Positions 11,310 through 33,757 of a stretch of 61,848 bases of DNA are shown piece by piece (positions within the stretch are counted from its first letter, which is position 1; each line of letters starts with the position of its first letter). Source of the stretch: Clostridiales bacterium (GTDB taxonomy: Bacteria; Bacillota; Clostridia; Lachnospirales; Lachnospiraceae); assembly GCA_021202175.1 (NCBI GenBank), contig JAJQDO010000010.1, forward strand, positions 1 through 61,848, given 5' to 3'. The notes beneath the pieces are model-generated. The model did no database searches and had not been told where the DNA came from. It saw nothing but the letters and a program-made list of their open reading frames with translations. Made by a program: the position numbers and the translations under genes.

Positions 11310-11625
11310 TTTCACTCACCCCCTGTGCAATCATTCTATGGCTGCACAAGATCTGCAGTCAAGGGCTTTTTTAGATATTCAAGGTTTCCAATTGGTCGGT
11401 TTATCGGTATAATGGCAATATAATCAAAGAAACCATTGTGAATGGCGTAAAGTCGTTTGTTGTGAAAGCGACTTTAAGAGATGTATGTCTGATAACGAAT
11501 ACCGAGAAAGCCTTTTGAAAGAATAAAACGGCTGGTCAGACATTCAATTTGAAAAGAATAGGAAGAAAAGAGCGTAAACTGCATCACGCTCTCATGGTGC
11601 CGTCTACGCTGCTTTATATTTTTGT

Positions 11626-12470
11626 CTATATAATCTGTTGAACAATCTCACGCAGAGTTCGCGTTTCAAAATCAACGTCGATACAGCGGGTGGAAAAGCC
11701 ATACCGAAGCGTTTCAAAATGCACCTGGGGCAGACCACAGGCTGCCATGTACTTCTTAAAGTGGTACTGCAATGTTCGTGGCTCCATGTAGGCTCTTGTC
11801 CCTGTCAGGATAAAAGCATTCTCGTCCTCACGTCGGAATTTCTCGCAGTATGCTTCCGTCAGGTTTGTCAGGCGAATCCTCTGCTCATCCGGTCGGCGCG
11901 TAGATGGACCAATCAGGACAATGGTCTTTGTCTCTGCGTCTGGGGCTAAATTTTGTACACGCTGCATTGTATGGGTAACGGAGATGGTGCGCTCCGGGAT
12001 GGAAATGTCGCTCCATCGCAGAGCGCAGACCTCCCCAATTTGCAAGCCGGCCATTAAAGACAGGAATATGCCAAATTTGCAGTCATCCATATCAATGACC
12101 AGAAATTGAAGAAGACGCTCCTGCTCATCAACAGGCAGGGCCTGTTTTTTTCACGACGAAGTGGGGGATAGGGCATCTGGATACTGGAAAAATCATACCC
12201 AGTTTCCTTCTGAATATAATCCAAAATGGAACGCAAAACAATCAGGATGCTCCGAACGGTTCTGGCAGACAGTTTTTCCTGCAACGTTTTTTTCTTTTCC
12301 AAATGTTCCACCAAATCGATGGAGAGTTCCGATAATTGACAATTCCCCAATTCTGGTCTGATATGCTTCTCCACAATAACATTATATTTTGCGTAGGAAG
12401 CTGGTCTGATCTTTCCTTTTTGCTGTTCCAGCCAACTGGTACAATAGTCGGAAAACAATACTTCTGGCAT
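11626..12470 (-). pseudogene. Catalytically degenerate tyrosine recombinase paralog, split by a frameshift at an A7 run (ORFs 12054-12584 and 11626-12090)
   Basis: Core-binding domain (SWLEQQKGKIRPASYAKY..EKHIRPELG) plus a catalytic domain reading GLQIGE and ETLRY, lacking the second His and the Tyr. One extra A at 12145-12151 joins the two frames. Confidence 0.8.
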
Positions 12471-12597
12471 AGACATCCTCCTTCCGCATTTTTTTATCAA
12501 AGCTGGTTTCATTTCATGAACATAAGCTAAGGCAGGGCTACGAGAAGCAGCGCTGCCCTGGCTTTTAGGATTCAGGGCAAACACTGTCCTGGTTATG

Positions 12598-13545
12598 TTA
12601 ATATGTGACCTTTATTCTTCTGTATAGAACCAACGCTGTGCCGCCGCAGATAAGCAGCCCCATCATGGTGTACAGCCAGGTTCCTTTTCCACCTGCAGCG
12701 GGAAGTTCATAGCCAGGAATATTTTCCACCTCAACGACATTAGAAATCGTGTTTCCTTCAACTTCTTTTGTAGAGCCTTCTGTTGCTTCTGCTGCGCCTT
12801 CCGCCTGGTAGGTGACAGTTCCTTCTTCTGTCAACGTGATTACAATGGCTTTATCCAATAAAGCATATCCATTAGGTGCTTCTGTTTCCTCCAGATAATA
12901 GGTTCCCGGGCCAAGGCCTTCAATATAAATCATGCCATTTTTATCCGTGGTCAGCGTAGTTGCCTCCTCGCGTTCACTCGTCCAACCAGTTAGGGTGTTG
13001 TCTACTACAACAGCATAGTAAATAAGATTTTCTGTCCCATCTGCTTCTCCCAAGTCAACAGTAGTGGTATAGTAGAGGATAAACTTCGCTCCGATCAGCG
13101 ATTCATCGCTGTAATATTTATATACATTTACCTCGTAGACATAGGTCACTGTTGTATCGTGCTCAGAATAAGAATCTGTGCCATAGGAAACATAAGTTTC
13201 ATTCGGGTTGCCCTCCCCGCCAATGACCGCATCAGCTGTGACTGTCGCTCTATAATACACCACAATAACATCAGCGGCGGTCAGGTCTTCTATAACACTG
13301 TTGTCAAATCTGACCTCAAAACTGCACCTATCCTCTGTAGTTGCATCGCTTGTTTTGTAATTGCCTGTATAGTAGATGACTGTATAGCCTGAAGTTAACC
13401 AGGTCTCTGTTTCGTTCCCCTCCGCATCGGTTGTGACAACTGATACACCAGATACATAGGGATCATCCAAACCCTCACTCAATACATCATGCAGCACCAG
13501 ATTGGTTGCTCCAGTCAAATTGCTGATGGTGGATTTGTATTGCAC
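12598..13545 (-). CDS. C-terminal part of the pilus tip adhesin (pilin D2 and SpaA/Cna-B domains, LPAAG sorting signal)
   Basis: GNPNETYVSY, E-box YYLEETEAPNGY, LPAAG plus TM plus basic tail. Joined to the upstream ORF by one extra A at 13604-13609. Confidence 0.8.
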   Translation of the reverse strand: MQYKSTISNLTGATNLVLHDVLSEGLDDPYVSGVSVVTTDAEGNETETWLTSGYTVIYYTGNYKTSDATTEDRCSFEVRFDNSVIEDLTAADVIVVYYRATVTADAVIGGEGNPNETYVSYGTDSYSEHDTTVTYVYEVNVYKYYSDESLIGAKFILYYTTTVDLGEADGTENLIYYAVVVDNTLTGWTSEREEATTLTTDKNGMIYIEGLGPGTYYLEETEAPNGYALLDKAIVITLTEEGTVTYQAEGAAEATEGSTKEVEGNTISNVVEVENIPGYELPAAGGKGTWLYTMMGLLICGGTALVLYRRIKVTY

Positions 13546-16500
13546 GGTATCGCTAATTCCGGCTGTGTTTTCATCCTCCCAGTTGCCATCACTGTCTTTA
13601 ACCTTTTTTCTACCTCAGGGTCTCCGTTGTTGACAATGGTATAATCTTCAGAGCTAGTCCAGTCTGTCTCGTTGCCTTCCGCATCAATCACGATGACAAT
13701 CACTTCATCGTAGGACACCGTCACGGTGTAGGTGTTTGTGCTGGCAGAATATCCCTCTGGAACCGTTGTTTCCGTCAGAATGTAGGTGTGACCGGATGGG
13801 ATATTTGTAAAGGTAACGGTCCCGTTCTCGTCCGAGGTTGCGGTCATATCCTCCAAATCAACAGAGGATGAGCCATCGCCCCGGCAGGCGTTACAGGTAT
13901 CCGTGTTGTGGGATAAAGTAAAGGTTGCTCCCTCCAAGACATCACCGTTCTGATCGACCTTGGTAAAGGTTAGCTCTCCAAGATAACCTTCTACCTTCGG
14001 CACCGGAAACGTAAGGGTTTTTTCCTCCGAAACAGTGGTCACGCCGTCTACCGTTGTTACCGTCTGATATATCAGCGACGCATTTCCGTTTGTAGCGTAG
14101 CTTGTGTCTTCTTCAAACGCATCGGACTCATTTTGTAGCCGCACCCGATAGGTGAGGGTATAGGTATAGGTAGTGGTACCGCTGCTTGTTTTTGCGGTAT
14201 ACCCTGAGTTTTTCAAATCCCAACTGATAGAACTGCTGTCTGCAATATAGGTCGCGGAATTTTCTCCTCCTTCTTCTACCTCTCCAATTAATGTAGATGT
14301 TGGCGGATAAACTTCTAAATCTCCATCGTTTTTATAGAAGCCAAGAAACTCCACGGTCGTGTCTGTGCTGTCAGTAAAGGTTGGGAGCGGGTCGGTCGCT
14401 ACCCACTTGGCCTGAGCACTCTCCTCATTCATGCTCTGAATCTCTTCGAAAATGGATTCATATGCTTCCAACAAGGAAGCCTCATCTGTGCTGTCATAGT
14501 AGTAGCCAGAACCGATCCCTGTTGTATCTGTGCCTTTCAGCCAGCTTTTAAATGCATCAGCAGAACTGGAGCTGCCAATCTCATAGGAGTCGGTTGTACG
14601 ATCGATTACTGAGTACGGCACACCATATCTTTCATAGCCATCTATGGTCTGTCCACCCACGTCGATACCAATGGAGAAAATATTGACGCCGCTCTCTTTA
14701 ATACTAGTCGCCATTTCTCTGGCACGGATTGCCGCCTTATCACTGTAGCTGGTTCCATAACTGCAATAATATCCCCTCACATAGCCATAAAAGACTCCAT
14801 CCGCTCCCTTTGTTCCACTGGATGTATAGGTATCATAACCATCGTACCCACTTTCAATATATGTTGTAGGGAATCCGTCACTCAAAAAGATGATATACTT
14901 ATTTTCGTTGGATGCCTCATCCAGCATGTCTGCTGCTCTTTTCAGGCCAGCCTCAATATTGGTAAATCTATTTGATTTATAATAATCGCTATCCTCTGAA
15001 TACTTTGTTATTATGCTGCCTGTCTCGGTTCGAATTTCATTTTTCAATTCTTCAGCTTCTGTTTCACTTGAGCAACTTGACAAATCAAAAACTTCCATTG
15101 CATCAGAGTTGAATGCGGCAAACCCTACCTGGCTGACACTATTTGTCGCATCGGCAAATTCATCCAGGAAACTTTCCGCAGCTGCTATTGCAGCTTCGTA
15201 TCGCGTGGTATCGCCATATTCACTCGTCATAGAATTGGAAATGTCCATTACAATGACAACTGCCATATCGGGCTCTGTATAAAGTTCAGAAATGTTTGTT
15301 GTCGTTTCAACAGTAAGCGTAATATCAAAGACGTTCTCGGTATCAGATCCGGCAATGCTATTGCTGATTGTCACCCCATCATCGCAGCATTCACTTCCGC
15401 CAGCCTTTGTAATCTGGACAGAAGAGGCTGCATACTCATCTTCCGTTTCTTCATCAACGGATAAAGATGAAACTATGATTTGATCCTCCTCATCAGATGA
15501 CTGGTCGCTCCAATATTCAAAATAACCGCTGTCTGCGAGTGCCTGGATTGCTTCCGGATTACCAGATTCCGCAAGACTGTCGTAATCAATTGTTTCCTGT
15601 CCGACTACCATAACATCTGAAAAAGTACTCAAGTTAAAGGAGATGCTCTGTGTTCCGTCTTCATACCCAGTTTCCGTTTCAATGGTCTCCGTCTCAGTTT
15701 CGCCAAAATGGGTGATGGTAAAACTCTCGCTTTCCATTTCCTGACTCAGATAAGTAATGGTGATCTGTACCTCGGCGGCTGGCTCAATCTCCTCACCGTC
15801 CTCGTTATAGAAGCCAATATTGAACAGGCGGATGTAGCCGGTATAATCCGATTCTTCATTCCAGCCATACAGCTTGGCAGCCTCGGCATAGCGGGAGAGG
15901 TAGACGTCCGAATCCTTTTCATACTCGGTGACGATCAGCTCCACATTTTCAGGCAGTTCCGCATCTTCGTCGCAGGTGGCAGTAACGGTGTAGTCCTCGC
16001 CTTCATATGTCAGAGTTATAACATCGGTTTCAGCCTCATCTTCAACTTCCTGCTCCGGCAGCAGGCCATAGCCGATGATATCGCTGTCGGAAAGACTGTA
16101 TGTATTTTGCTTTACCGCATCGTCGTAATCTCCTTCGATGATGGTAATCTTTCCAGTGTCCTCATCGACCTTCGTCACGATGCCCACATGGTCGGCAGTA
16201 CCGTCGCCGTCGTTGTCAAAAAATACCAGGTCTCCAGCGGAAGGGGTGCAGTCCGTCGCATACAGACCCATGTCATCCAGAGACACCGTCCAGGCATTGA
16301 CACCGGAAGTCTCCGGAAAATCGCTCTCCGGCACACCGGCATAATGCAGGCAGAAGGACACGAACATCGCGCACCAGTCGCCGTATTTATTGCCATACCA
16401 GGCTCCGTAGCGGGTATAGCCTTTATGGGTCTCCCCGTCGTCATCCAGAGTATAGTTGACGATGCTTTCCGTATAACCGATCTGGCTCTCGGCGATGGCA

Positions 16501-17108
16501 ACCACGTCCTCCGCCCATACGCCGGACAGAGCGGGCAGAGTGGCTTCCCAGTCAGAAGCAGTCTCCACGTCGGCAGTCTCATCCACCATGCACTCTATCG
16601 TATGAGTGTGTTCCTCCAGTCCGCAGCTGAGTTGCTCCTCATAACACTCCTCCGTGTGGGTATGCCCTTCAGATTCTTCCAGACCACAGGTCAGCACCTG
16701 CTCCGTCTGATAGCAAGTGTCGCTGTGAGTGTGTCCCTCAGACTCCTCCAGACCGCAGATCAGGTTCCCGTCCTCATCATAACAATCGTCTGTGTGGGTA
16801 TGCCCTTCGGATTCTTCCAGACCACAGACCAAGGTGGTCACAGTCTCATAGCAGGCATCTGTGTGGGTATGCCCCTCACACTCCTCCATTCCGCAGACCA
16901 GCACAGAGGAATAGCACTCCTCCGTATGAGTATGCTCCTCCAGACCGCAGTAGGTCTCGTTGGTCAGGGCAATGCCGGTGGAGTGAAGCTGCCAGGTGAC
17001 ACCTGTAGCCACCAGCAGCGCCAAGGCCAGTAGCAGGGCTACAGCCCGTCGGCTTTTACGCTTTTCCTCCTTGAATTTCCGTACATAGGAATTTACTATG
17101 TTTTTCAT
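13515..17108 (-). CDS. Pilus tip adhesin N-terminal part: His/Cys repeats, CHAP domain, vWA domain, Cna-B domain
   Basis: Signal/TM segment; CGLEE(SEG)HTHT..CY repeats; WCAMFV / DHVGIV / IEG CHAP residues; MIDAS DISNS..T..FLSDG; YILTETTVPEGY. Confidence 0.85.
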   Translation of the reverse strand: MKNIVNSYVRKFKEEKRKSRRAVALLLALALLVATGVTWQLHSTGIALTNETYCGLEEHTHTEECYSSVLVCGMEECEGHTHTDACYETVTTLVCGLEESEGHTHTDDCYDEDGNLICGLEESEGHTHSDTCYQTEQVLTCGLEESEGHTHTEECYEEQLSCGLEEHTHTIECMVDETADVETASDWEATLPALSGVWAEDVVAIAESQIGYTESIVNYTLDDDGETHKGYTRYGAWYGNKYGDWCAMFVSFCLHYAGVPESDFPETSGVNAWTVSLDDMGLYATDCTPSAGDLVFFDNDGDGTADHVGIVTKVDEDTGKITIIEGDYDDAVKQNTYSLSDSDIIGYGLLPEQEVEDEAETDVITLTYEGEDYTVTATCDEDAELPENVELIVTEYEKDSDVYLSRYAEAAKLYGWNEESDYTGYIRLFNIGFYNEDGEEIEPAAEVQITITYLSQEMESESFTITHFGETETETIETETGYEDGTQSISFNLSTFSDVMVVGQETIDYDSLAESGNPEAIQALADSGYFEYWSDQSSDEEDQIIVSSLSVDEETEDEYAASSVQITKAGGSECCDDGVTISNSIAGSDTENVFDITLTVETTTNISELYTEPDMAVVIVMDISNSMTSEYGDTTRYEAAIAAAESFLDEFADATNSVSQVGFAAFNSDAMEVFDLSSCSSETEAEELKNEIRTETGSIITKYSEDSDYYKSNRFTNIEAGLKRAADMLDEASNENKYIIFLSDGFPTTYIESGYDGYDTYTSSGTKGADGVFYGYVRGYYCSYGTSYSDKAAIRAREMATSIKESGVNIFSIGIDVGGQTIDGYERYGVPYSVIDRTTDSYEIGSSSSADAFKSWLKGTDTTGIGSGYYYDSTDEASLLEAYESIFEEIQSMNEESAQAKWVATDPLPTFTDSTDTTVEFLGFYKNDGDLEVYPPTSTLIGEVEEGGENSATYIADSSSISWDLKNSGYTAKTSSGTTTYTYTLTYRVRLQNESDAFEEDTSYATNGNASLIYQTVTTVDGVTTVSEEKTLTFPVPKVEGYLGELTFTKVDQNGDVLEGATFTLSHNTDTCNACRGDGSSSVDLEDMTATSDENGTVTFTNIPSGHTYILTETTVPEGYSASTNTYTVTVSYDEVIVIVIDAEGNETDWTSSEDYTIVNNGDPEVEKRLKTVMATGRMKTQPELAIPCNTNPPSAI
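16589..16953 (-). repeat. Coding tandem repeats (C-G-L-E-E-x0-3-H-T-H-x3-C), six copies
   Basis: Visible in the translation and as recurring GTGTGGGTATGCCC on the + strand. Boundaries are approximate. Confidence 0.75.
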
Positions 17109-17194
17109 AACTGCACCTCTACTTTCATCACGAGGGAGAACCGTTTCAGGGTCCGACCCTTAAAGATTTACTTAACAATTCATTTTGCCCGATG

Positions 17195-17791
17195 TCATTC
17201 TGTCCGGCTGCATCGTACGGTCACTCTTGTCTGACCGCCTATGGTACAGGTGAACAGGGTCAGATTCCACTGTTCGGATTCCTGGCTCACCATTTCCTCC
17301 ACGTCTGTAGGCTGGAGGATGATAATCTCCTCCACCTGATAGTTAAATACGTTGCCACTCACGTCAGTAAATGTAATCTCGTCGCTCGCCTCCAGGTATT
17401 TCAGATTCCCGAAGTGACGCTCATAATTGTGTCCGCATATGATAAGGTCGTCCGTCCATACACTGCCGCTGTAGCGGCCGGGGGCTATCTTCAACCCGGG
17501 ATAGCTCCACTCCGCCATGACGGGCAGCTCCAGTCCGTAGCTGGGGATGGACAAGGTGCCGATGTATTCATATCCGTCAATCTCTATAGTTCCCATTTCA
17601 TCGCTGCTGTTCGCCGTAGGGAAATTGTCCCCTACGGTCTCCTCCTCTTCTTCCTCCAACGCGTCCTGGATGTCGGCCACAGACTGTCCGGCCCGCCAGT
17701 TGTCCCAGCGGTTATAGGCCAGAAGCCCGACAGCGCCAATCAACAGCAGCGCACCCAACGCCATGAGAAACAAACCCAGTTTATTTCTCAT
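17195..17791 (-). CDS. Sortase (short, lid-less, class D-like)
   Basis: N-terminal TM; ICGHN, LTLFTCT and downstream Arg catalytic triad. Confidence 0.85.
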   Translation of the reverse strand: MRNKLGLFLMALGALLLIGAVGLLAYNRWDNWRAGQSVADIQDALEEEEEETVGDNFPTANSSDEMGTIEIDGYEYIGTLSIPSYGLELPVMAEWSYPGLKIAPGRYSGSVWTDDLIICGHNYERHFGNLKYLEASDEITFTDVSGNVFNYQVEEIIILQPTDVEEMVSQESEQWNLTLFTCTIGGQTRVTVRCSRTE

Positions 17792-18506
17792 ATTCCTCCT
17801 GCTTATTGCCGGAGCGTCTCAACGCCCAGCCAAAGAGAAGCAGCACCGAGCTACCACCTGCCATCAACCATACAGGCCAGTTAAGCTGTCCGGTTTTGGG
17901 CAGAGTAGACACAGTCGACGTGGAGTTCTTGGAGGTCTTAGAGGTTGACGTCGACTCTGATTCAGACTCAATGGTTGTGACCTCCCCCACCTTAGGACTA
18001 GCATCCACGGTGTAGACCCACTCGCCGTCGTTGTCGATGGGTACCGTCACCACGAAGGGGTTGATGGTTTCATAATTGTCGGAATCTGTGGTCTGGATAA
18101 TCAGGTACAGCCCCAGCTCCAGGTCGGTGAAGCTCACGGTGCCACCAGAGCCGATACTGGCTGTGGTACCGGAAATGTCCGAATCTTCCACATAGGCCGC
18201 TAGCGTGGCCGCCAGGGACGTGTCCTCCACATCCAGCGTAATTTCGCAGCCGTTGAATGCGTCCGCATACTCATAGACCATGTTGCCGTCGTCCAGATAG
18301 AGGATCGCTACCTGATAGAGCGTCACGGCTCCGCCAGAGACAGCGTTCCCGTCGCTGTCCGCCAGGGTCAGCTCGATGGAGCCGGTCTGGTCAAAGTCCA
18401 GGGATGCGGTATCTGCTGCATAGGCGGTCACGGTCATGGCAAAGATCATAATCAGCGCTAACAGGTACGGTAATATACGGTAGACTGTTTTTAGTGTGGT
18501 TTTCAT
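17781..18506 (-). CDS. Minor/basal pilin
   Basis: Signal peptide, single Ig-like domain with GLYLIIQ and VDASPK pilin Lys, LPKTG plus TM plus basic tail. Start moved to 18506 (GGAGG RBS). Confidence 0.8.
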   Translation of the reverse strand: MKTTLKTVYRILPYLLALIMIFAMTVTAYAADTASLDFDQTGSIELTLADSDGNAVSGGAVTLYQVAILYLDDGNMVYEYADAFNGCEITLDVEDTSLAATLAAYVEDSDISGTTASIGSGGTVSFTDLELGLYLIIQTTDSDNYETINPFVVTVPIDNDGEWVYTVDASPKVGEVTTIESESESTSTSKTSKNSTSTVSTLPKTGQLNWPVWLMAGGSSVLLLFGWALRRSGNKQEEYEK

Positions 18507-18561
18507 AGAGATTCCTCCATTCTTATGATGCATCTGTCGCAATCAATAGTTTTCTTAATAT

Positions 18562-19434
18562 TTACTTCTTCTTTTTTCTGATGCTGACCATCATCCAGAT
18601 GAGCAGGAGCACCAGCATAGGTACTGCTGCAATAGTTGCAACCAGAATGGTGTCGATCTGGTATGCCTCCGCCGTCACGCGGATATGCATGTCATCGGCG
18701 TTGGCTGTCCGCACGCCCCGCACCAGCAGCCGATGACTGTTGACGCCGTAGGGGGTGCAGGTCATCAGTGTGCAATAGTCTTTGCCTTCCTCTATATAAA
18801 GGTTCTCAATCTCATCCGGAAGGACGATGGAAATCTGGTCTACCTCATAGGTCAAAACCTGATTCAACACGGTGATGGTGAAGGCATCGCCTACCTCCAG
18901 CTGGTCAAGATTCGTGAACAGCAGGCTGCTGGGCAGCCCCCGGTGAGCGGAAATCACGCAATGGGTGCTTTCGCCGCCTATCGGAAGACTGCTACCCTCC
19001 AGGTGTCCGGCAGCGATCTGCAAAACGCCTGCGTCCGTACCGTGGTAGACGGGGAGCTGGACGTTGATCTTATCAATGGTGATATAGCCCATGATGCCGG
19101 TGCCGGTGATGTCCAATGTGTCCCAATAGTCTTCGTTCACCAGGTCAGTGTTGACGATGGCAGATGCAGAGCCAATCTCGGCTAACTGCTTGTTATACGC
19201 CTCTGCGGCCTCAAACAGAGCGGTATAATCCGCTTCGTCCATTGCAGATACGGCGGCTTCATAGTTCGCCACCGCTCTGGTCTGCACTCGGGAGTTCCAC
19301 CAATTGCTGACAGAAGGATAGAGCAGGATAATAAGTCCCACCACGAATATGATTACCAGAATGACCGTTCCAATTCGTCCTCGCTTTTTTTGCTTTTTCA
19401 CGACTGTGGCGTTTATTGCCTTTTTTCGCTTCAT
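18562..19434 (-). CDS. srtC: Class C (pilin-polymerising) sortase
   Basis: GHLEGSSLPIGGESTHCVISAHRG, TLMTCTPYGVNSHRLLVRG; N- and C-terminal TMs. Confidence 0.92.
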   Translation of the reverse strand: MKRKKAINATVVKKQKKRGRIGTVILVIIFVVGLIILLYPSVSNWWNSRVQTRAVANYEAAVSAMDEADYTALFEAAEAYNKQLAEIGSASAIVNTDLVNEDYWDTLDITGTGIMGYITIDKINVQLPVYHGTDAGVLQIAAGHLEGSSLPIGGESTHCVISAHRGLPSSLLFTNLDQLEVGDAFTITVLNQVLTYEVDQISIVLPDEIENLYIEEGKDYCTLMTCTPYGVNSHRLLVRGVRTANADDMHIRVTAEAYQIDTILVATIAAVPMLVLLLIWMMVSIRKKKK

Positions 19435-19562
19435 ACGACCATAAGCTCCTCCGGCTTTCCTTTGTCCCGCTCATTCTGTTTGCTCTTAGCTGTCCTCTGC
19501 CGTTTTTTGTGGCAGTGAACACCGAACAGCGAACAGTATTGTTGCTCCTTCATAACCGGTTC

Positions 19563-19593
19563 TCCTGTCCTCGGCCGCAGGGCCGAGGCAGGA
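19563..19593 (-). other. GC-rich stem-loop between the major pilin and srtC
   Basis: TCCTG(T)CCTCGGCC-GCAG-GGCCGAGGCAGGA hairpin. Confidence 0.45.
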
Positions 19594-19680
19594 TTGCCGT
19601 CCGTATTTTTATTTTGCTCATTTGCCTCTTATTTTCCCAGGCACTGCCATTCTCCATTCTGAATCTGCCGAAGGAGAGAA

Positions 19681-21186
19681 TCACTTAGCTGCGCTCATGC
19701 GCTTGCGGGTGATGAGCAGGACAGCCGCACCGAGAACCAACACACCGCCCACGATGTAGAAGATAGTGGTACCCATGCCGCCAGTGGAAGGCAACTCTGA
19801 GCCTTTGTAATTGGTGATGTTCGTAGAAATCGTGCCATCAGAGGTACTGGTGGTAAAAGATAAGCCCGTACCGGAAATGGTGTTGCCATCAGCGTCCTTG
19901 ATGACCAAAGAAGTGATACCATCCTCGGTGTGCGAAGCTTCGATGGTGAAATAGAGGTCATCCATGGTGTTATAGCCATCGGGAGTTGTAGTTTCAACCA
20001 GCTTATACTGGCCATCATCCAAGCCTTCCCAAGTAAAGGTGGTCAGACCATCACCGGTAATTTCTTTTCCCACAACCTCATAGGTTTCAGTGTCGGCATT
20101 ATACTTGTATAAAGTGAAGCCAGCGTCCTTCAGGGCATTACCCTCAGAATCAACCTTGTTCACGGTCAGGGTGAAGGTAAAAACAGTGGTGATATCCTCA
20201 GGCGTAGAGCCAGTGGAGTCTTCATCATATGGATTATTTGAATATTCCACATAGGCCTTGTTATTTTCCTCATAGGAAGCATTGTCATTCAGTCCAGCGG
20301 TGTAGGTCACTACAACTTCGGTGCCGGAGGTAAGGGACAGACCCTCGATATCCAACAGGTCAGAAATAGTGATGGTGATAGTGGTTTCACCGGTAGTCTC
20401 GTCAGTAGTGTAAGCTACAGTGTAGTCCTCCGCACTTAGGGTAACATTGCCGACTTTGACAACCACATCATTATTGAAAGTCAGGCCAGAGGATAGAGTA
20501 TCGTGGAACACCAGTTTGTAACTGGTATAGAGGCTCAGGTCGCTGGGCAAGGTAGCTGTCAGAGTGAAAGGAACATCATCGCCGATGTCGTAGTCAGCGG
20601 AGTCAGTGTCGCCCTGCGTGGTGGTATTGTCGGAATCGTTGACATCAGTAACAGTTTTGTCAAACGTAGGAGTGCCGTTGGTCTTCGGATCTACGTTAAC
20701 ATCGTCAACCACTTCCAAGATGTAATCGGTATACTCACCGTCGGCAGGAACGGTGGTGTTCACAATCAGATAGTAGCCAGCATCATCAACGGTAATGGTG
20801 TAGGTGCCATCACTCTGTTGTACGGAGGTGGTACCGCTGGTCACATAATCGGCCACGATAGCGGCGAATGCAGCAACATCCTCTGCGTCTTCAATCTTCG
20901 CGGCGATTTCAGCAGCGTCAGTCGTGCCATAGGTGTCGTTCAGAGCGGCCAAGAACTGCTCATTAGAAGAACCTATACCAGTGCCCCAGGTGATGTTGGA
21001 CAGAGTATTGCCATCTTCGGAAAGGTCACCAGCAAAAATCTGATAAGCGGTGTACACATAGCCGCTGGTGGAGTTGTTAATGGTAATGGTATAACCATCA
21101 CCATCTGCCGCAAAAGCGGTGACGTTCATGGCGAAAACCATGACCAGAGCCAGCAGAACACTGGCAAACTTTTTCATCTTTCTCAT
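19681..21186 (-). CDS. Major backbone pilin (SpaH/EbpC-like, isopeptide D2 domain)
   Basis: Signal peptide; VDPK pilin motif; FDKTV..ADYDIGD; NNKAYVEYSNNP; E-box YKLVETTTPDGYN; LPSTG plus TM plus RKR. Confidence 0.92.
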   Translation of the reverse strand: MRKMKKFASVLLALVMVFAMNVTAFAADGDGYTITINNSTSGYVYTAYQIFAGDLSEDGNTLSNITWGTGIGSSNEQFLAALNDTYGTTDAAEIAAKIEDAEDVAAFAAIVADYVTSGTTSVQQSDGTYTITVDDAGYYLIVNTTVPADGEYTDYILEVVDDVNVDPKTNGTPTFDKTVTDVNDSDNTTTQGDTDSADYDIGDDVPFTLTATLPSDLSLYTSYKLVFHDTLSSGLTFNNDVVVKVGNVTLSAEDYTVAYTTDETTGETTITITISDLLDIEGLSLTSGTEVVVTYTAGLNDNASYEENNKAYVEYSNNPYDEDSTGSTPEDITTVFTFTLTVNKVDSEGNALKDAGFTLYKYNADTETYEVVGKEITGDGLTTFTWEGLDDGQYKLVETTTPDGYNTMDDLYFTIEASHTEDGITSLVIKDADGNTISGTGLSFTTSTSDGTISTNITNYKGSELPSTGGMGTTIFYIVGGVLVLGAAVLLITRKRMSAAK

Positions 21187-21492
21187 AAAAAAACTCCTTT
21201 ACTTAAAAATGTGTTAAATAGTGGATAGGAACGGGGTATTGTTGCCAGATCCGATGATGGAAAGACGATTTACCCATCAGGTGAGCTTCGCACGATATTC
21301 CTTCTCTTCCTCTGGTGTCTATACAAAAGGCAGATTGCGCCACACAGCAATCCCACCATTGTATATGGATTTTATATGGATCGTTTCCTGTGCTCTGGAT
21401 GCGCAGTTGACGCAAGGTTCCGTCTCGGATGCCCGCGGCACATGCATTTGGAATAACTTTTCATACTGACATTCTCCTCATCCTTTTTGGTT

Positions 21493-22110
21493 TTATCGAA
21501 TCAGGGAGAGGCGATTTAAAGGCCACATCCTGAAAATCACCTTTCCCACGATCTGATCTGTCTCTATACAGCCGATCGCTGTGCTTCGGGAATCTATCGA
21601 AGTGGTTCGGTTGTCCCCCATAACGAAATATCTCCCATCAGGAACCTGATAAGGGTATTCGCGGTCACTTTCACCCAATGCTTTCTCCGTCACATACGAC
21701 TCATTGAGCAACTCATCATTGACATAGACGTTTCCCTTGTCGTCGATATCCACAATGTCCCCCGGCCCGGCGATGACACGCTTTAGCAGCAGCTTGTTCT
21801 GGTAGTAGAATCCCACCAAGTCGCCGGTCTCGAAGTCACCGGTCTTTATCAGAACAATCACATCCCCATCCTCCAGAGTCGGCTCCATGCTAGTGCCGGA
21901 TACCTGCAAAACCGGCAGAAACATGGTTGCAATCAGCACGGCCACCGCTGCCACCACAATCAACGCATAAATCGTTGTCCGGATGGTCTGCCGGTATCTT
22001 TTCTGGTATTGCAATCGTTCTCGTTCGGCGGCTACTTCCTCCGCAGTGGGGATGTCCGTCATCTGTGGGATGCGCTGGCTCATATGCGTATTCTGTTCGT
22101 TCCTGCTCAT
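21493..22110 (-). CDS. Pilus-associated signal peptidase I
   Basis: SGTSMEPTL (Ser), LLKRVIA (Lys), GDNR..SIDSR. Start uncertain (22110 or 22137). Confidence 0.88.
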   Translation of the reverse strand: MSRNEQNTHMSQRIPQMTDIPTAEEVAAERERLQYQKRYRQTIRTTIYALIVVAAVAVLIATMFLPVLQVSGTSMEPTLEDGDVIVLIKTGDFETGDLVGFYYQNKLLLKRVIAGPGDIVDIDDKGNVYVNDELLNESYVTEKALGESDREYPYQVPDGRYFVMGDNRTTSIDSRSTAIGCIETDQIVGKVIFRMWPLNRLSLIR

Positions 22111-22292
22111 TTCACAACCTGCTCCTGAACCGATCAACCGGTACTATTTTGTTGATACTACACTGAGACATTCTACTGCACCTCTTTTACTCCACAGGCA
22201 ACGATCTACTTTCTACCCTCCCGCATATGGGCAGTAAGCTTCGGATACCTTCCCATGATTTTCTTGGCTTCCCGAACAAAGCAGACCTGCTG

Positions 22293-22691
22293 TTACTTGA
22301 CATCCTGCACTGTCTTATCTCGCAACTCATCGTATTCAAGTTCCATCTGCCGGATGCGTTCCGCCGCCCTATCCGCTTCTGTCTGGGCAGCGATTAACAT
22401 CTCATCTGCCTGCCGTTGCGCGTCCGCCAGAATCTCCGCCGCTTCCTCATCAATATTCCACAGGGAATCCAAATACTGTCGGGCAGCGGCCTCGGCATCC
22501 TCAAAAACATGGTTCAGACTCATAGCCGCTTCCGCGATGGACCCCGCATTCTCCATACGCAAGAACTTGTCGTCCAACTGGCAGTGCAGCTTTTCATTTT
22601 CCTCACGCAGTGACCGTTCGTTTTGCTGTAAAGCGTAAATAATCTCAATCAGTTCTGTGCGGTTCATTTTGCGCAATTCTTTGTCTGCCAT
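22293..22691 (-). CDS. DivIVA-like coiled-coil hypothetical protein
   Basis: Helical acidic/basic heptads (AAEILADAQRQADEMLIAAQTEAD); co-oriented with the pilus genes. Confidence 0.6.
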   Translation of the reverse strand: MADKELRKMNRTELIEIIYALQQNERSLREENEKLHCQLDDKFLRMENAGSIAEAAMSLNHVFEDAEAAARQYLDSLWNIDEEAAEILADAQRQADEMLIAAQTEADRAAERIRQMELEYDELRDKTVQDVK

Positions 22692-22826
22692 GGTTATGCC
22701 TCATTTCTTGTTTTTGCTTCCTGTCGTCATCATTTGTTCCGGCTACGCTTAAAACGCAAAAAATCCGGACCGATCTTCTTGTACCATGGGACGCTCACAC
22801 GTTGTATTTCCACAGGTAGTTTAGCC

Positions 22827-22919
22827 TCAGCCTTTTTTGCAGTTTAGACAGACCCATTCTCCCTCCGGCACATATGCACCGCACATAACACAGGTGTCTT
22901 CCATCAAGTAATATTTCAT
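22827..22919 (-). CDS. 30-aa Zn-ribbon micro-protein (not in the ORF track)
   Basis: MKYYLMEDTCVMCGAYVPEGEWVCLNCKKG*; two CxxC pairs; GAAGGTGA RBS before the ATG. Confidence 0.65.
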   Translation of the reverse strand: MKYYLMEDTCVMCGAYVPEGEWVCLNCKKG

Positions 22920-23101
22920 ATCACATCACCTTCAGCGCACATCAATTCTGTTCTCCCTTTTAATTAGGGAATGCGCAAAACACACAACAAATCATGAATA
23001 TTTGTCCCGGTTCTTGGTATAATACAGTCATCGCCGGATACAATGCTCAAATGAAGAAGTCAACGCCTATGTAACGGAGACAATATATGCTTCCGCTTAC
23101 G

Positions 23102-23128
23102 TTGCTCTTTAAGTGTTCACCTATGCGA
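23102..23128 (+). repeat. Left inverted repeat of the invertible segment
   Basis: TTGCTCTTTAAGTGTTCACCTATGCGA matches the reverse complement of 24663-24689 at 25/27 positions. Confidence 0.85.
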
Positions 23129-23152
23129 ACAAAACACCGAAATCCCTGAAAA

Positions 23153-24340
23153 TCAGGCAATCTCCTGATATGCATGACCACTAATCTGACCACCGGCGTG
23201 AAAGCAGGACAGCTTATTGACCTGCGCTTTTTTCATATCCATAGAGGGATGAACGTAGCGCTGCAAGGTGATTTTCACATCAGAGTGCCCCATGATTTCA
23301 CTAAGGGATTTGATGTCCACGCCACTCTCCACGCAGCGGGTTGCGTAGGTGTGGCGGAGCGTATGGAAGGTGTGGTCTGCCACGCCTGCCCTGTGCAGCA
23401 GACGTTTGTAACGTTCAAGGCAGACTCTCGGCTCCATATATTTGGTGGTTCCCGTCACGACATAGCAGTCTCCATCCCTGCGGCGCTCCATTAAATACTG
23501 AAATACCGTAATTGGCAGTGGAATCGTGCGGATGGAACAGTCCGTTTTCGGCGTTCCAATGACCACTTTTGTCTTTGCGCCGTTCTGTCCGTCCATGTCC
23601 GTGATACGGTAAACGGTCTTATTAATCGAGAGTGTTCCGTTTTTGCCGTCAATGTCTTTCCATTGCAGGCCGCATACCTCGCCAATGCGGATACCACCAT
23701 AAAGTGAGAGCAACACGCCAAGGCCGAACGGCGTGTCTTCTTCCAGCACCTTTGCCTCCACCTTCGTCTGCTCCCACGCTGTCAATACGCTGGCGTCAGG
23801 CTGGCGGCTGGTCATGGACGGGCAATCTGGCACAGTGCGGAGCATTCCCTGTTTTTTTGCAAATCGGAGAATCTGCATCAAGACGGTCTTCATATCCGAG
23901 ATTGTCTTATCTGAGAGCGCACCGCCGCCCAGCCGACCACTGATTTTCTTTTTCTCCAGAAATTTTGTCAGGCAGCTGCTGTCAATACTGCTGACAGGAA
24001 GCTCCCCCAACACAGGAAGGATGTGTTTCTCTGCCATGATGCTATAGCAGCTGTAGGTAGATTCCTTGACCCCTGATTTCTTAGAAAGCAACCATCCGGT
24101 CACGACATCCCGAAACGGTGTGTCTTCCATTCCGGTCTTCTCCGGGAGGGATGGGATCACATCCAGCCGCATAAGCTGCCTATTTTCCAAAAAGGATTTC
24201 TTCTTTTGCCGAACATCCTGATAGGAGCTGCCGTAGAAGTATTTGTAGTTAGTCTTTCCACAGATTGGTTTGCCCTGAACTACCCTGGCTTCCCATCTTC
24301 CATCTTGTCTCTTGCGAATGTTTTCTCCTCGTCTGCCCAT
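23153..24340 (-). CDS. Tyrosine recombinase/integrase, intact
   Basis: Arm-binding-type N-terminus (ENIRKRQDGRWEAR), core-binding domain, and catalytic GIRIGE, PKT, HTLRH, MGH, QRYVH. Confidence 0.93.
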   Translation of the reverse strand: MGRRGENIRKRQDGRWEARVVQGKPICGKTNYKYFYGSSYQDVRQKKKSFLENRQLMRLDVIPSLPEKTGMEDTPFRDVVTGWLLSKKSGVKESTYSCYSIMAEKHILPVLGELPVSSIDSSCLTKFLEKKKISGRLGGGALSDKTISDMKTVLMQILRFAKKQGMLRTVPDCPSMTSRQPDASVLTAWEQTKVEAKVLEEDTPFGLGVLLSLYGGIRIGEVCGLQWKDIDGKNGTLSINKTVYRITDMDGQNGAKTKVVIGTPKTDCSIRTIPLPITVFQYLMERRRDGDCYVVTGTTKYMEPRVCLERYKRLLHRAGVADHTFHTLRHTYATRCVESGVDIKSLSEIMGHSDVKITLQRYVHPSMDMKKAQVNKLSCFHAGGQISGHAYQEIA

Positions 24341-24375
24341 TGCTTTGACCTCACTTTCTTTATTTAGCGGCTTTT

Positions 24376-24405
24376 TGTGACAGAAATCGAAATTATACCG
24401 TCACA
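24376..24405 (-). promoter_or_regulatory. Recombinase -10 box inside an inverted repeat (candidate operator)
   Basis: TGTGACAG-N14-CCGTCACA dyad enclosing a minus-strand TATAAT at 24392-24397; no good -35. Confidence 0.45.
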
Positions 24406-24577
24406 TTTTTCTGCACAGATTAAATATGGCGGCGAACCTTGATAAAATAAAAAATGTAATAAGTAGTCAGTCACTCTGACCACGATTTTGACTATTGTCC
24501 CCTTATGTTTCCTATGATTCAGCCGACGGGGTTTCTTTAAAAATACATTTTTTGTAAGAAAATAGCCAAAATGACGA

Positions 24578-24606
24578 TTGACTTCAAAAGAATAAAAGGG
24601 TATAAT
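24578..24606 (+). promoter_or_regulatory. Near-consensus sigma-70 promoter inside the invertible segment
   Basis: TTGACT (24578-83), 17 bp, TATAAT (24601-06); A/T-rich upstream; points at the right IR. Confidence 0.8.
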
Positions 24607-24662
24607 GATGAAGTATGAAGGAATCGTCGTTTGAACCATGTCATTTCTGTTAAAAATTGGAA

Positions 24663-24689
24663 TCGTATAGGTGAACACTTAAGGAGCAA
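24663..24689 (-). repeat. Right inverted repeat of the invertible segment
   Basis: TCGTATAGGTGAACACTTAAGGAGCAA; reverse complement of the left IR with 2 mismatches. Confidence 0.85.
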
Positions 24690-24777
24690 TTGAATTTTAG
24701 TATCGACGTCTGTGGGTTGATTATGGCTTGTGCCAGCACCCAGAGATTTTTTTGCCATACTTTATTATGCAGGCCAA

Positions 24778-25068
24778 TACGAGAAGGAAGAATCTATCGA
24801 TTCATTTACAGACCGATTCTATCGATTCCCAACAAAGTTTGATGTCCATAAATACCGCATCATGGCAGATTTTGCAAACAATCTGCCAGCCGGTACAATA
24901 CTAGATGAGTTGGCCTATGCCATCCAAGGCAAAGGGACTTTCTAGAGATTTAAAGATAATATTCGCTACTATGACATTGAGCAACCGTGATATGATTACC
25001 AAAACGATGCATATAAACAGATTGCCATATGTTGGTACCAGGAAGAATGTCCGGAGTACGAGGAATAG
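24778..25068 (+). pseudogene. UPF0158-like gene remnant (5'-truncated, two in-frame stops)
   Basis: ...FYRFPTKFDVHKYRIMADF..AIQGKGTF*RFKDNIRYYDIEQP*YDYQ..AYKQIAICW..EYEE*. Confidence 0.65.
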
Positions 25069-25178
25069 GCTTCAAAAACGTTTTCAATCTGACGCATCCT
25101 TCTAACGTTGTTTTTGCCGACAAGTTCATTGTGTCGTGTCATTCACATAAAATAAAATTTCCTTTCTGATTTTTGGGC

Positions 25179-25212
25179 AAAAAATAACCGAGTACTGTCT
25201 AATGTACTCGGT
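25179..25212 (-). terminator. Intrinsic terminator/attenuator
   Basis: ACCGAGTAC-loop-GTACTCGGT followed by TATTTTTT on the minus strand. Confidence 0.6.
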
Positions 25213-25643
25213 CTAAAAGCGGAAGCCATGGCCTTCGCAAGAATATTTTTTATTATTTACTCTGTTTTCTTCAGACAAGCTCCTGTAGTTCCAGACGGGC
25301 ATAAACTCACCTCCCGTGTAAAGGACATGCCTACCCTTGTTATCCGGGTGAATTCCCTTGATTAAGAAAAGGATGCACCAAGCAGGCTATGCCCGGAAAC
25401 GGAAATCCGCGGGGTTTCTCCTTTGAATAACAACTACATCTGTCCCATATTAATTCTCCCTTTCTGTAAATGCAGAGCAACAAGGATGATCACGTTTTAC
25501 TGCGCAACTTCCGATTCTTGCGTTTTTCATTTAATATGCTATAATGATGCCTGTATGTCAGATTAAGAACGAGAAAGCGAAAGAAAACACACATGGATTG
25601 TCTAACTCTATGAATATCTTTTGCAGAAAGGTGGAAGCAAATC

Positions 25644-26378
25644 ATGATACTGGAAAGAGATTATCTCCCCATGTTTCGGGAATCGGAGGCCAATGGACTC
25701 ATTGGAATCAAGGGCTATCTCTATTATTTTCAAGATATAACAACGCAGTTTCTGCACAATCTCGGCAAAGGCAATGATACCCTGCCTGAAGAGTACGGCA
25801 TCTGCTGTATGTACGCAAAATACAGAATCCATGTAGAAAAACTAGTTGATTACACTTCTCCTGTGCACATGGAAACCTGGATGGAGAAGACCAACTCCCA
25901 CGCACTGCTCTACCAAGGGTTCACCATTAAAAAAAGCGGAGCCTTGATTGCGGCCGGCAGAGTGGAAAGTTGTTTCTTTGATATGAAACGAGGCCGCTTG
26001 ACAAAACCTTCGGCAGTCGATTTCCCGAAGGGGATGGAAGAAGATCAGCGAAATGACGTGGAGCCGTTCCGAAAGAAAATGCCAAAGTCCATAGACGATA
26101 TGGAATACCGTTACACCCATACCGTCCGCTATACCGATCTCGACAAAATGGGGCATATGACGAACTTAAAATACGTCGACCTTCTGCTCAATGCGTTTGA
26201 CAGCCAATTCTATAAAGCGCATATGGCTACGGATATGGAAATCCATTATGTCAATCAATGCTATGAAAGCGAAGCAATCAAGGTATACGCACAGGTGCAG
26301 GGAGAAAACATCTGGCTGCTCGGTGTGAAGGAAGACGGGGCCATTGCGGTACAGGGAATGTTAAGGACTGCGTCCTAA
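25644..26378 (+). CDS. Acyl-ACP thioesterase (double hot-dog)
   Basis: YFQD..., VHMETW, VRYTDLDKMGHMTNLKY. Confidence 0.85.
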   Translation: MILERDYLPMFRESEANGLIGIKGYLYYFQDITTQFLHNLGKGNDTLPEEYGICCMYAKYRIHVEKLVDYTSPVHMETWMEKTNSHALLYQGFTIKKSGALIAAGRVESCFFDMKRGRLTKPSAVDFPKGMEEDQRNDVEPFRKKMPKSIDDMEYRYTHTVRYTDLDKMGHMTNLKYVDLLLNAFDSQFYKAHMATDMEIHYVNQCYESEAIKVYAQVQGENIWLLGVKEDGAIAVQGMLRTAS

Positions 26379-26405
26379 ATCCCACGAAAAAGAGGTTTGT
26401 TGTAC

Positions 26406-26452
26406 TTTTTGCCACGGCTCACTCCATTCTCCCCAGCATAACTGGGGAGAAT
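26406..26452. repeat. 47-bp hairpin-containing repeat, copy 1
   Basis: 39/47 identical to 26962-27008; ATTCTCCCCAG-CATAA-CTGGGGAGAAT stem. Confidence 0.65.
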
Positions 26453-26521
26453 GCCTGCCGTTTTCTCAGAAAAAGAGGTTTTTTCTCAACAAGTCACGTC
26501 TTTCCTTGAAAAGAAATTTTT

Positions 26522-26875
26522 TCAGTTGAAGTTATCTCGTCCAAATATACAATCAAAGATCAATGTAAATGTGACTACAACGTTATAAACAGGAAAAATT
26601 CCAAACGTCAGACCATTCCAGATATACAGATAATATGATATCCCAAGATTCACTATGGCGCATATTAGAAATAGTCCTGTTTTCACTTCTCGTTTAAGAA
26701 CCAACAGAAAAATTAATAATGACATAAGCGCTGCAAATAAAACTTCAGTTAAAATCATAACCCATCCATTAAAAGTCTTATCTGCATAATTATCAGATAA
26801 TTTATAACAGACTGGATACAAGGTAGCCGCTATGATATTCAATATCAGCAAGACATAGATATTTATTTTTCTCAA
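26522..26875 (-). CDS. Hypothetical membrane protein (about 4 TM)
   Basis: Hydrophobic helices; TTG start with GAGGTG RBS; AT-rich. Confidence 0.6.
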   Translation of the reverse strand: MRKINIYVLLILNIIAATLYPVCYKLSDNYADKTFNGWVMILTEVLFAALMSLLIFLLVLKREVKTGLFLICAIVNLGISYYLYIWNGLTFGIFPVYNVVVTFTLIFDCIFGRDNFN

Positions 26876-26961
26876 CTAATCACCTCTATCTCACATACAA
26901 AAAATTTTAATACTTAATATTCTTACTCAATATTCTTATAGAAAACTTTATTTTATTGTCT

Positions 26962-27008
26962 TTTTTACCACGGTTTACTCTATTCTCCCCGGCATAGCCA
27001 GGGAGAAT
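26962..27008. repeat. 47-bp hairpin-containing repeat, copy 2
   Basis: See copy 1; the stem is retained with compensatory and G-U changes. Confidence 0.65.
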
Positions 27009-27027
27009 AGTTTTCATTTGCAGGTTT

Positions 27028-27926
27028 TTATTTTTTCAGAATAATCTTTCCTTTAAAACCATATTTCCTGACCTGTTTCTGAACAGTTCGGTTCTTTACA
27101 TATATCTTGCAAGTTTTCGGAATGCTGGAAAGGCTGCATTTTTTAATGCTCTTTGCATTGATATATACTTTCTTAAGAGCACTGCTGTTTGTATTGCCGC
27201 CAAAGCTTCCTCCCAGGCTCTTTACATTTTTGGGAAAGGTGAGGGTCTTTAATTTCGGCGTCTGACGGAAGACTCCGTACCCGATTTTTTTCACGGATTT
27301 GCCAATCTTCACAGAAGTCAGATTTTTCATATTTCGGAATGCATCCGCGCCGATAGACTTGACATTCTTGGTAATCACGATGGATTTTATCTGGTCGTCC
27401 CTGTAAAATGCATTTGCCGCGATCTCTGTCACCGTCTTTTTCACCTTATATTCACTCTTCGTACTGGCAACACTGTAGAGTGTCTTTCCATTCTTAGAAT
27501 AGATATCATTGTTAACCACTTTGATATAAGGATTGTCAGCGTCTACGGTAATCTCCACTGCCGGACACTCTCTCACTACCGGATATCTGTTTACATCCTT
27601 GGGAACGCAAAGGCTTTTTAATTTCGTACAGTCATAAAAAACCGCCCCGGAGATATCTGACGGATCTTCAAACACGATCTCTTCCAGATTTATGTAATGA
27701 CAGGCCGGTTCGGAAATGATCACTTCTTCCTGCCCATCCACATCATAAAGGGAGGCATTACAACTGCCGCTCCCAACATAGGCCTCATATCTGACACCAT
27801 TTAACACGAATTCTATTGGGTTGCTGTCTTCGCATTGAGCGTTCCTGCCGGGGAAAGGATGACAAATGCCATAATGGCAAGCGTTGGAAGAATATACATC
27901 CAGCATTTCTTTAAAATCTTATTCAT
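27028..27926 (-). CDS. BspA-type leucine-rich-repeat surface protein; signal peptide separated by a 1-bp frameshift
   Basis: LRR_5 repeats (VKSIGADAF, VKKIGYGVF). ATG 27926 with AAGGAGG RBS gives MNKILKKCWMYILPTLAIMAFVILSPAGTLNA in a different frame from ORF 27028-27906. Confidence 0.75.
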
Positions 27927-32362: not shown

Positions 32363-33682
32363 TTATATTTCCCGGATTCTCCGGCATTCGGTATAGTACC
32401 GCTTATCCTCCGCATGTCCCATAGAAAATGTCTTCCGGGGCAGAGAACCGTCTGCCAGCACTGTGGGGAAGAGCTCTCCCTTTCCCATATCCGGGAGCAG
32501 AAATCCCACGCTGTCCTTCTTCATAGACAAGGTTTCCACTGTGTCAGCTCCGTGGATATAATCCACCTTCGCCGGATGTTCTTTTACATACTCATTCAGG
32601 AAATTCTGCAGGCTTCCTACCGTCAGTTTCGACAGCGGCTTTGTAATCTGCACTCTTTGCTTCCTTCCCTGTCTGACCACCACCATTTCCTGGCTACTAT
32701 CCCTGCGGTCAATCGCTTCGGTTCCTTTGGATTCCGGGATGGAAACCAAACCAAGGCAGGCGGTCATCTCTTTCATCAGATTGTCTCCATCTACCTGTTT
32801 TACGATGCGGTGAATTGCCTCAAATTCCAGAGCCGGGCTGTGTACATTAACAATTTCTGCCAGAGCATAGCGAGCCGGATGGTTGGAAAGATCTTTCCCT
32901 GGATTTTCCGCTTTTAACTGCTCATAGTATTACTTTGCTGATGACAGAGAATGCTTTCCATCCCCCACGCAATACAGCAAAACCGAAGGCACATCCGCTT
33001 TTCGATCTGCGATCACCTGCTGTGCTTTTCTGGCTTCCTCCAAATGCATCTGGTCAATGGCCGCCAGAATCTTCGCCTGCTCACTCTCTCCCAGAAGGTA
33101 TCCCCTGATATGACCGCCGCCCAGCATCAGATCAAAATCATAAAGTAATTTACTTTCATCCTTCATGCCCGCAACGGGCTCCACGATACTTTTTTTATTA
33201 TCATCAATCAAAATCATAATATGCGGAATCTCCATAGGCGCATTTCTGCGCACACGGATTCTCGCCGGAATGCGCTCCACCAAAGTTGCTTCCGTCGCCC
33301 GCACCAGTGAATGGCTTCCTTTATGATAATCATACTGTTCGAGATCAATGCCGCCTACGATGCCGGCCCGCATCTTACCGGTGCTGTCCGTTCTTTCCAC
33401 GTAGATCATCGCATTTTTATATTCTTCAAAAATATCCTCTTCGATATATTTTTCCATGAAATAGCGGATATTTACCAATCGTTTTTCCTCTTCCGGTCCA
33501 TCCAGATAGACCTCCGGCAATATCATTCGCAAAGCAGAAGGATTGTCGCCTACCAGTTCTTCCACTTTTTCCCAATATTCTGGTTCACTGGTAAACTGAT
33601 CACAGGCGATCACAGACCACTTGCTCATGTCTATTCCTTTCTTTGGCAGGATGATGTCCACCGGACAGAACCCTCTTTTCAT
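32363..33682 (-). CDS. DUF1015-family protein, interrupted by an in-frame TAA at 32930-32932
   Basis: WSVIACDQFTS, RATEAT..RIP.R, FDLMLGGGH; after the stop HPARYALAEIVN..FEAIHR; C-terminal LPRKTFSMG. Confidence 0.8.
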
Positions 33683-33757
33683 ATTGTATATCCTCTCTTT
33701 CTTCTCGAATCTTCTGTACAATCCACTATATATCCTCATGCTGTAAACGGAAATCAT

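Follow-up and report, generated by a model that had tools for sequence, protein, structure and literature searches.

An integrase-type recombinase inside its own inverted repeats forms a probable self-inverting promoter cassette beside a sortase pilus operon in a Clostridiales bacterium

A 1.59-kb cassette, within which lie the gene of an integrase-type tyrosine recombinase and a promoter motif directed outward, likely inverts itself, and by doing so switches a sortase pilus operon; as assembled, the operon is likely in an off or low state. This reading is drawn from sequence comparison. The cassette lies in a contig of a Lachnospiraceae genome (Clostridiales bacterium, GCA_021202175.1, JAJQDO010000010.1), and the window referred to below is the whole stretch of 61,848 nucleotides that was analysed. 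An earlier note, made from the letters of the window alone, had proposed that a gene resembling a phage integrase is here an invertase that phase-varies the pilus. Comparison with a large family of related recombinases supports that proposal family-wide, while for the window copy itself we infer inversion.

The two repeats are as the earlier note described them, 27 nt long and complementary at 25 of 27 positions, and a search allowing up to 6 mismatches finds both of them unique in the 3.85-Mb assembly. The spacer of the left one reads TGTTCAC and that of the right one is its reverse complement; the two mismatches between the repeats both lie in the arms and none in the spacer. The flanking repeat score is 21, which none of 500 ORFs of 300-500 aa, drawn at random from 885 in the same genome, attained, and a score of at least 15 was found at only one of them. 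The recombinase between the repeats is intact, with 395 aa, a Phage_integrase match (E=6.5e-23), a SAM-like domain and all six catalytic residues (R218, K265, H326, R329, H352 and Y362), and its gene ends 24 nt from the left repeat. The promoter motif was likewise confirmed; it matches the sigma-70 type at 11 of 12 positions and points away from the pilus operon. It is the best of 6 motif matches in 22000-26000, where 6.1 are expected by chance, so that the number of matches is uninformative. In the present orientation it faces a UPF0158-like fragment, which with its two in-frame stops is the dead gene remnant that had been reported there. In-silico inversion agrees with the prediction that the -10 box would move to 23185-23190 and face the operon; the whole motif would then occupy 23185-23213, 266 nt from the small leader ORF and 494 nt from the gene of the 132-aa protein. 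A search for the cassette DNA in 36 genomes of the genus gave, outside its own genome, only short partial matches.

Table 1. Features of the cassette and of the adjoining operon, in window coordinates
Feature	Position	Strand	Remarks
Left recombination-site candidate	23102..23128	.	Imperfect dyad, 7-bp spacer 23114-23120; top family-matrix score in window
Right recombination-site candidate	24663..24689	.	Identical 7-bp spacer, inverted, 24671-24677
Tyrosine recombinase, integrase type	23153..24340	-	Predicted N-terminal three-strand/one-helix, core-binding and catalytic domains
Candidate arm-type site, upstream copy	24477..24495	-	Tandem GTCA-N8-GTCA
Candidate arm-type site, downstream copy	23175..23193	-	Within last codons of recombinase gene
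Outward sigma-70-type promoter motif	24578..24606	+	TTGACT-17-TATAAT, 56 nt inside right repeat
UPF0158-like gene remnant	24742..25068	+	Two in-frame stops; weak match E=0.002, below Pfam cut-off
30-codon ORF in operon leader	22827..22919	-	Two CxxC motifs (zinc-ribbon-like); weak match E=0.0015, below cut-off
First conserved operon gene, 132-aa helical protein	22293..22691	-	No Pfam family
S26 signal-peptidase-like protein	21493..22137	-	SipA-like by position
Backbone pilin	19681..21186	-	SpaH/EbpB family, LPXTG anchor; profile match
Class C (pilus) sortase	18562..19434	-	276 bits vs cut-off 160
Minor pilin-like protein with sorting signal	17781..18542	-	
Second sortase	17195..17791	-	Whole ORF
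Tip-pilin-like gene (CHAP, vWA, Ig-like, SpaA)	12598..17108	-	Two ORFs, frame break at A-run near 13605
Catalytically dead recombinase paralogue, operon end	11626..12584	-	No N-terminal domain, no C-terminal His/Tyr; frameshifted near 12150

The identification of a sortase pilus operon to the left of the cassette, on the minus strand from 22691 to 12598, is borne out by SpaH/EbpB pilin and class C sortase matches above the NCBIfam cut-offs. The S26 signal-peptidase-like protein we take, from its position, to be SipA-like. The 132-aa protein has a 73% identical match behind the cassette of the closest homologous locus, L039, which is without the zinc-ribbon-like ORF at that place. The frame break in the tip-pilin-like gene may be real decay, slippage or an assembly error; if slippage, the gene could undergo a further phase variation of that type in addition to the inversion. 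The N-terminal part of the same protein has a Cys/His-rich repeat (CGLEESEGHTH-like) encoded by four 69-bp repeats at 16635-16896. Elsewhere in the window, two consecutive minus-strand ORFs at 32363-33757 resemble by eye one split gene, possibly a further frameshift in the contig.

Of 7458 candidates, 4692 are homologues of the recombinase at E<=1e-40; the named ones come from Clostridiales, Lachnospiraceae and Oscillospiraceae and are called 'site-specific integrase'. Loci were examined for the best 80 of 594 genome and the best 80 of 534 metagenome confirmed homologues, together with 6 from a search of relatives (own locus included); 7 of these 166 were too short and 146 had full flanks. The earlier note had suggested looking for inverted repeats around homologous recombinases, and with a score of at least 15, one arm no more than 600 nt upstream and one no more than 350 nt downstream of the gene, they are present at 122 of the 146 loci, that of the window included. 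Shuffled flanks gave such repeats at none of the 146, and more distant integrases at none of 86 complete loci (102 tested, 16 incomplete). Of the other 24 family loci, where this first test found no repeat, 2 have inverted pairs on either side of the gene according to a matrix scan; also among the 24 are L092 and L107, with segments of about 140-150 bp between inverted core sites downstream of the recombinase gene, and judging from these the clade of switch recombinases also includes layouts with the recombinase outside. A midpoint-rooted FastTree phylogeny of 105 proteins groups all of the repeat-bearing proteins sampled, 35 in number, in a single clade (support 0.98). The same clade holds 17 family loci in which no repeat was detected, 3 dead paralogues and, from the 50 controls, L199 and L200; the remaining 48 controls lie outside. 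On this tree, bearing repeats is a property of one clade, though it does not extend to all of its members.

Catalytic residues are kept with few exceptions: across 142 family ORFs, R218 and K265 are present in all, H326 and R329 in 141, Y362 in 140 and H352 in 139. At 86 of the 122 repeat-bearing loci the stretch from the upstream repeat to the start codon contains an outward promoter motif matching at least 10 of 12 positions; an inward one was seen at a single locus, and none at the downstream end. Plasmids of cultured strains also carry repeat-flanked homologues (L314, L315 and L316); the repeat is perfect on those of Ruminococcus albus 7 (20 bp) and Vescimonas fastidiosa (29 bp), and that of an Enterococcus gilvus plasmid (29 bp, 86%) stands before a WxL/LPXTG cluster. 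Several genomes hold 2-4 family genes, and some loci lie beside conjugation or phage-like genes (L134 and L082). The window locus is therefore not alone in its architecture; it belongs to a large family whose targets are of many kinds. Among the variants, a genome of the same genus (L031, G032:C14:56000-75900) has two cassettes 10 kb apart, each before a large surface-protein gene at which its recombinase points. Long inverted repeats of 105-166 bp occur in L032 (G047:C14, 4512-12630), where they surround a recombinase between two divergent polysaccharide-type operons, and in L034 (G059:C1, 1593-6611), where they surround a 5-kb multi-gene segment.

Each family repeat is an imperfect dyad, with the half-site consensus TTCGTAGAG and a 7-bp centre. 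Among the 87 cassettes examined are 79 non-redundant ones with a clear dyad, and in 77 of these the spacer is exactly the same in both copies, even though the 79 have 68 different spacers between them. Mismatches between the copies amount to 0.4% in spacers as against 8.2% in arms, a statistic partly inflated by the alignment-based detection of repeats, which somewhat favours central identity. This is the pattern to be expected, on the evidence of the aligned sites, if the two sites of a cassette must recombine with each other. The core sites are inverted here, not direct, and with tyrosine recombinases matching spacers in inverted orientation give inversion. No direct pair with the same spacer was found around the gene in the 24 family loci without repeats.

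Inside the two ends there is a further conserved element, a tandem GTCA-N8-GTCA on the strand of the gene, which is found upstream in 59 of 87 cassettes, downstream in 58 and on both sides in 43; on the opposite strand it never occurs. Shuffles give an expectation of about 1. We read these motifs as candidate arm-type sites. The first 60 residues of the recombinase are predicted to form three strands and a helix and have no Pfam match; a fold search with this isolated domain returned nothing at E<=0.001, the best weak match being an AP2/GCC-box domain (E=0.4). By both sequence and fold the closest solved structure is the Tn1549 integrase, followed, in fold comparison of full-length chains, by lambda integrase.

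Evidence for inversion comes from groups of cassettes at least 90% identical, 9 of 13 of which contain both orientations between the same flanks, as seen in assemblies rather than reads; one of the 9 (L060/L061) is a pair of paralogous loci within a single genome. When one member is flipped in silico, the identity rises from 0.86 to 0.999 for L185/L192 (cassette plus 300 nt on either side) and from 0.85 to 0.996 for L055/L167. These pairs are distant from the window copy, at 35-42% protein identity, and the only close homologue with context, L039 (79% identical enzyme), has the same orientation as the window and the same first genes.

According to crude ORF calls on 89 non-redundant loci, 85 have an outward-pointing gene starting on at least one flank. 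Where there is a single such gene, the promoter end faces it at 28 loci and faces away from it at 43; outward-starting genes stand on both sides at 14 loci and on neither at 4. A Pfam scan of 171 flanking proteins (first 330 residues) from 85 loci placed polysaccharide-synthesis domains at 15 loci and also met PqqD/radical SAM, Tad, LRR, dockerin/cohesin, vWA and kinase genes, many proteins having no match. Surface-protein operons, which the earlier note proposed to look for beside homologues, are among the neighbours: pilus-type operons follow the cassettes of L039, L065, L043, L074 and L118, although in L043, L065 and L074 no sortase lies within the flank fetched. The cassette faces the operon in L043, L074 and the second cassette of L118 (pilin and sortase matches), and faces away from it in the window, L039 and L065. 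In L074 the cassette stands between two copies of the gene that opens the target operon (6948-7400 and 9298-9657), and there is a 77-bp repeat, as well as a third core-like site near 9997, an arrangement in which nested inversions possibly choose between gene variants. In L095, from Clostridium sp. AF27-2AA, an rRNA adenine dimethylase gene (9566-10351; RrnaAD, E=1.9e-82), which may be Erm-like, stands two genes from the cassette.

The following course of events would account for these features. The recombinase would be made from inside the segment in either orientation, and the lack of a strong inward promoter motif would fit a low level of expression. Its N-terminal domain would bind the tandem GTCA motifs inside each end and bridge to the core sites, as lambda-type integrases do, and strand exchange across the matching spacers would invert the segment. 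Since both arm-type motifs lie inside the segment, the product would have the same layout as the substrate, and reversal would then need no excisionase. In the assembled state the promoter would fire into the dead remnant. As to origin, the cassette may be what is left of an integrative element that lost its cargo and kept its two ends, with one spacer reversed: an integrated lambda-type element has its arms inside, its cores at the ends and its spacers direct, and a single reversed spacer would turn excision into inversion. Whether an integrative element, shrunk to its integrase and two attachment sites with one 7-bp spacer reversed, has become a large undescribed family of portable, self-contained and freely reversible promoter cassettes, kept largely independent of each other by their spacers and serving throughout the gut Clostridia for the phase variation of operons, those of sortase pili and surface polysaccharides among them, seems to us an evenly balanced question; the same proposal has the dead paralogue of this locus perhaps feeding back on the switching.

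The earlier note had called the switch captured OFF. The promoter does face away from the operon, but 'off' may be 'low': the recombinase gene is directed at the operon, no clear terminator was seen between them, and some read-through would be possible. Taken further, this leads to an unlikely alternative, in which the cassette is of the invertible family and the window copy has become a dimmer or a relic. Either its operon would be transcribed in the present orientation, by read-through out of the recombinase gene or from some weak promoter that is fixed, or the locus would be decaying and would no longer switch a working pilus. The recombinase gene does end close to the left repeat, no U-tailed hairpin was found between its stop and the operon, and the operon leader has 410 nt as compared with about 105 nt in L039; frameshifts affect the tip pilin and the dead paralogue, the right-hand remnant has its stops, and the two repeats differ by two mismatches. 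Such mismatches in the arms are, however, common in the family at the rate given above, and the spacer, the catalytic residues, both arm-type motifs and the promoter motif are intact; the backbone pilin and both sortases are whole ORFs. Nor is there an obvious fixed promoter to read the operon: as the earlier note held, the only candidate is TTGACT-17-TATCCG at 23063-23035, with a -10 matching at only 3 of 6 positions, and no motif above 8/12 was found on the minus strand in the leader (22692-23101) or upstream of the recombinase. Beyond the right repeat a hairpin is insignificant as a terminator (z -1.0), a clear one (z -3.2) lies at 25186-25213, and an Rfam search of 11000-27500 gave no match.

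It is very improbable that the cassette is instead a small mobile element whose terminal inverted repeats and fixed outward promoter are delivered to operons, the orientation differences reflecting independent insertions. Cassettes do stand beside many unrelated operons and on plasmids, several genomes hold 2-4 family genes, and some loci lie next to conjugation or phage-like genes, all of which a mobile element might explain; yet the window's genome has a single copy, the spacers are specific to their loci, the repeats are dyad core sites and not transposase ends, and opposite orientations share both flanks right up to the repeats, which independent insertions would seldom produce. Least credible of all is that the opposite orientations of relatives are assembly mis-joins at the repeats, which would then be only autoregulatory binding sites. 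All the orientation evidence does come from short-read assemblies, but the repeats of 20-30 bp are shorter than usual reads and final k-mers, and recombination, unlike assembly error, predicts that spacers agree within a locus and diverge between loci and that the promoter stands at one end only. A prophage or tRNA-linked island was rejected as well, the nearest tRNA genes being 12 kb away; among the best 20 matches in a phage collection, 35-37% is reached by faecal contigs that bear no annotation, and about 28% by annotated phage integrases.

The self-inverting cassette may be set beside several known systems. The H segment of Salmonella (hixL/hixR, fljBA promoter) holds both recombinase gene and promoter and switches a surface appendage, and the window cassette likewise has its recombinase gene and outward promoter motif inside the segment. 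In place of a serine recombinase, however, it has a tyrosine enzyme of the integrase type (Phage_integrase, R-K-H-R-H-Y), with 7-bp-spacer dyads, candidate arm-type sites instead of a Fis enhancer, and a Gram-positive sortase pilus as its target. With fimS of E. coli it would share a tyrosine recombinase inverting the promoter of a pilus operon, but FimB and FimE are short and encoded outside the fimS switch, whereas the window enzyme has 395 aa and its gene lies inside, and against the NCBIfam model of tyrosine-type DNA invertases (NF007371) it scores 18.9 bits, with a cut-off of 222. In layout the cassette works as Hin/hix does and in chemistry as fimS does; it belongs to neither. Hin is described as a serine invertase acting on hix (PMC11868660). 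The catalytic and core-binding domains are common to the window enzyme and to the integrases of lambda and Tn1549/Tn916, its best PDB matches in sequence and fold, and there is also a site beside the 3' end of the gene; the likeness would extend to the predicted extra N-terminal domain and to the tandem motifs inside both ends, as candidate arm-type sites; lambda-type integrases bind distant arm sites through their N-terminal domain (PMC4880445). The differences are that the core sites are inverted, not direct, that an outward promoter is conserved, and that no cargo or excisionase-like gene was seen within the segment.

Control of Gram-positive surface structures by recombinase inversion has been described for the RecV switches of C. 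difficile and the SZO08560 invertible promoter of S. zooepidemicus (PMC5903667, PMC2654543), where, in contrast to the window, the segments are short and the recombinase is remote (RecV) or adjacent (SZO08550, CDR20291_3416). The likeliest overlap is with inverton group 139 of Jin et al. 2025 (PMC11892184), which comprises 33 invertons, 32 of them from Clostridia, with a novel repeat motif and a link to a group of tyrosine-type recombinase/integrase invertases (group 35). It may be the same family, by comparison with the published description only; that description lists the recombinase as enriched near the invertons and 'non-regulatable', without placing it inside, where the window's gene lies. 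Recombinases in general are stated to be encoded near or inside invertible regions (PMC9881135). In the literature covered, from which subscription papers were mostly absent and in which the supplementary inverton tables may hold instances, we found no account of this cassette family and none of inversion control of a sortase pilus; the sortase-pilus case that was found is reported to use slippage (PMC9187656).

The principle is a classical one, and the interest lies in the family and in its integrase-derived anatomy: the cassette would exemplify how altering the geometry of 7 bp of DNA makes an invertase of an integrase. In the gut, phase variation by inversion has mostly been described for Bacteroidota. 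One inverton predictor was trained only on segments shorter than 300 bases (PMC11602134), so that cassettes of 1.4-1.8 kb labelled 'site-specific integrase' are easily missed. Cultured carriers exist in Ruminococcus albus 7 (plasmid pRUMAL02), Vescimonas fastidiosa (pMM35_02) and Butyricicoccus pullicaecorum DSM 23266, which makes the claim directly testable, and the natural diversity of spacers could supply independent memory switches for Gram-positive hosts.

The catalytically dead paralogue at the end of the pilus operon has a counterpart in the same genome, a second copy (G000:C305:11294-12238, L037) that is truncated in the same way, having neither the N-terminal domain nor the C-terminal His/Tyr, and likewise stands at the end of a surface-protein operon; in both the catalytic His is replaced by Glu, and four more proteins at 70-84% have the same truncation or the same C-terminal end. 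The frameshift in the window copy may be real decay, slippage or an assembly error. Over 262 codons the two copies differ at 147 third positions, as against 64 first and 49 second positions, an excess which suggests that the dead enzyme has been under selection. In the tree the dead paralogue and the switch recombinase arise in different parts of the family. As a family-wide feature it was rejected, only 5 close proteins being present among 37 matches, and it was found in none of 10 genomes with close cassettes and, among 399 scored genomes of the class, in none but its own. The operon of the second copy starts, near the contig end, with a small gene that is PqqD-like by eye (G000:C305:19120-19703); PqqD/radical SAM operons follow cassettes in L052, L123 and L124, and an unassembled cassette may precede this one as well.
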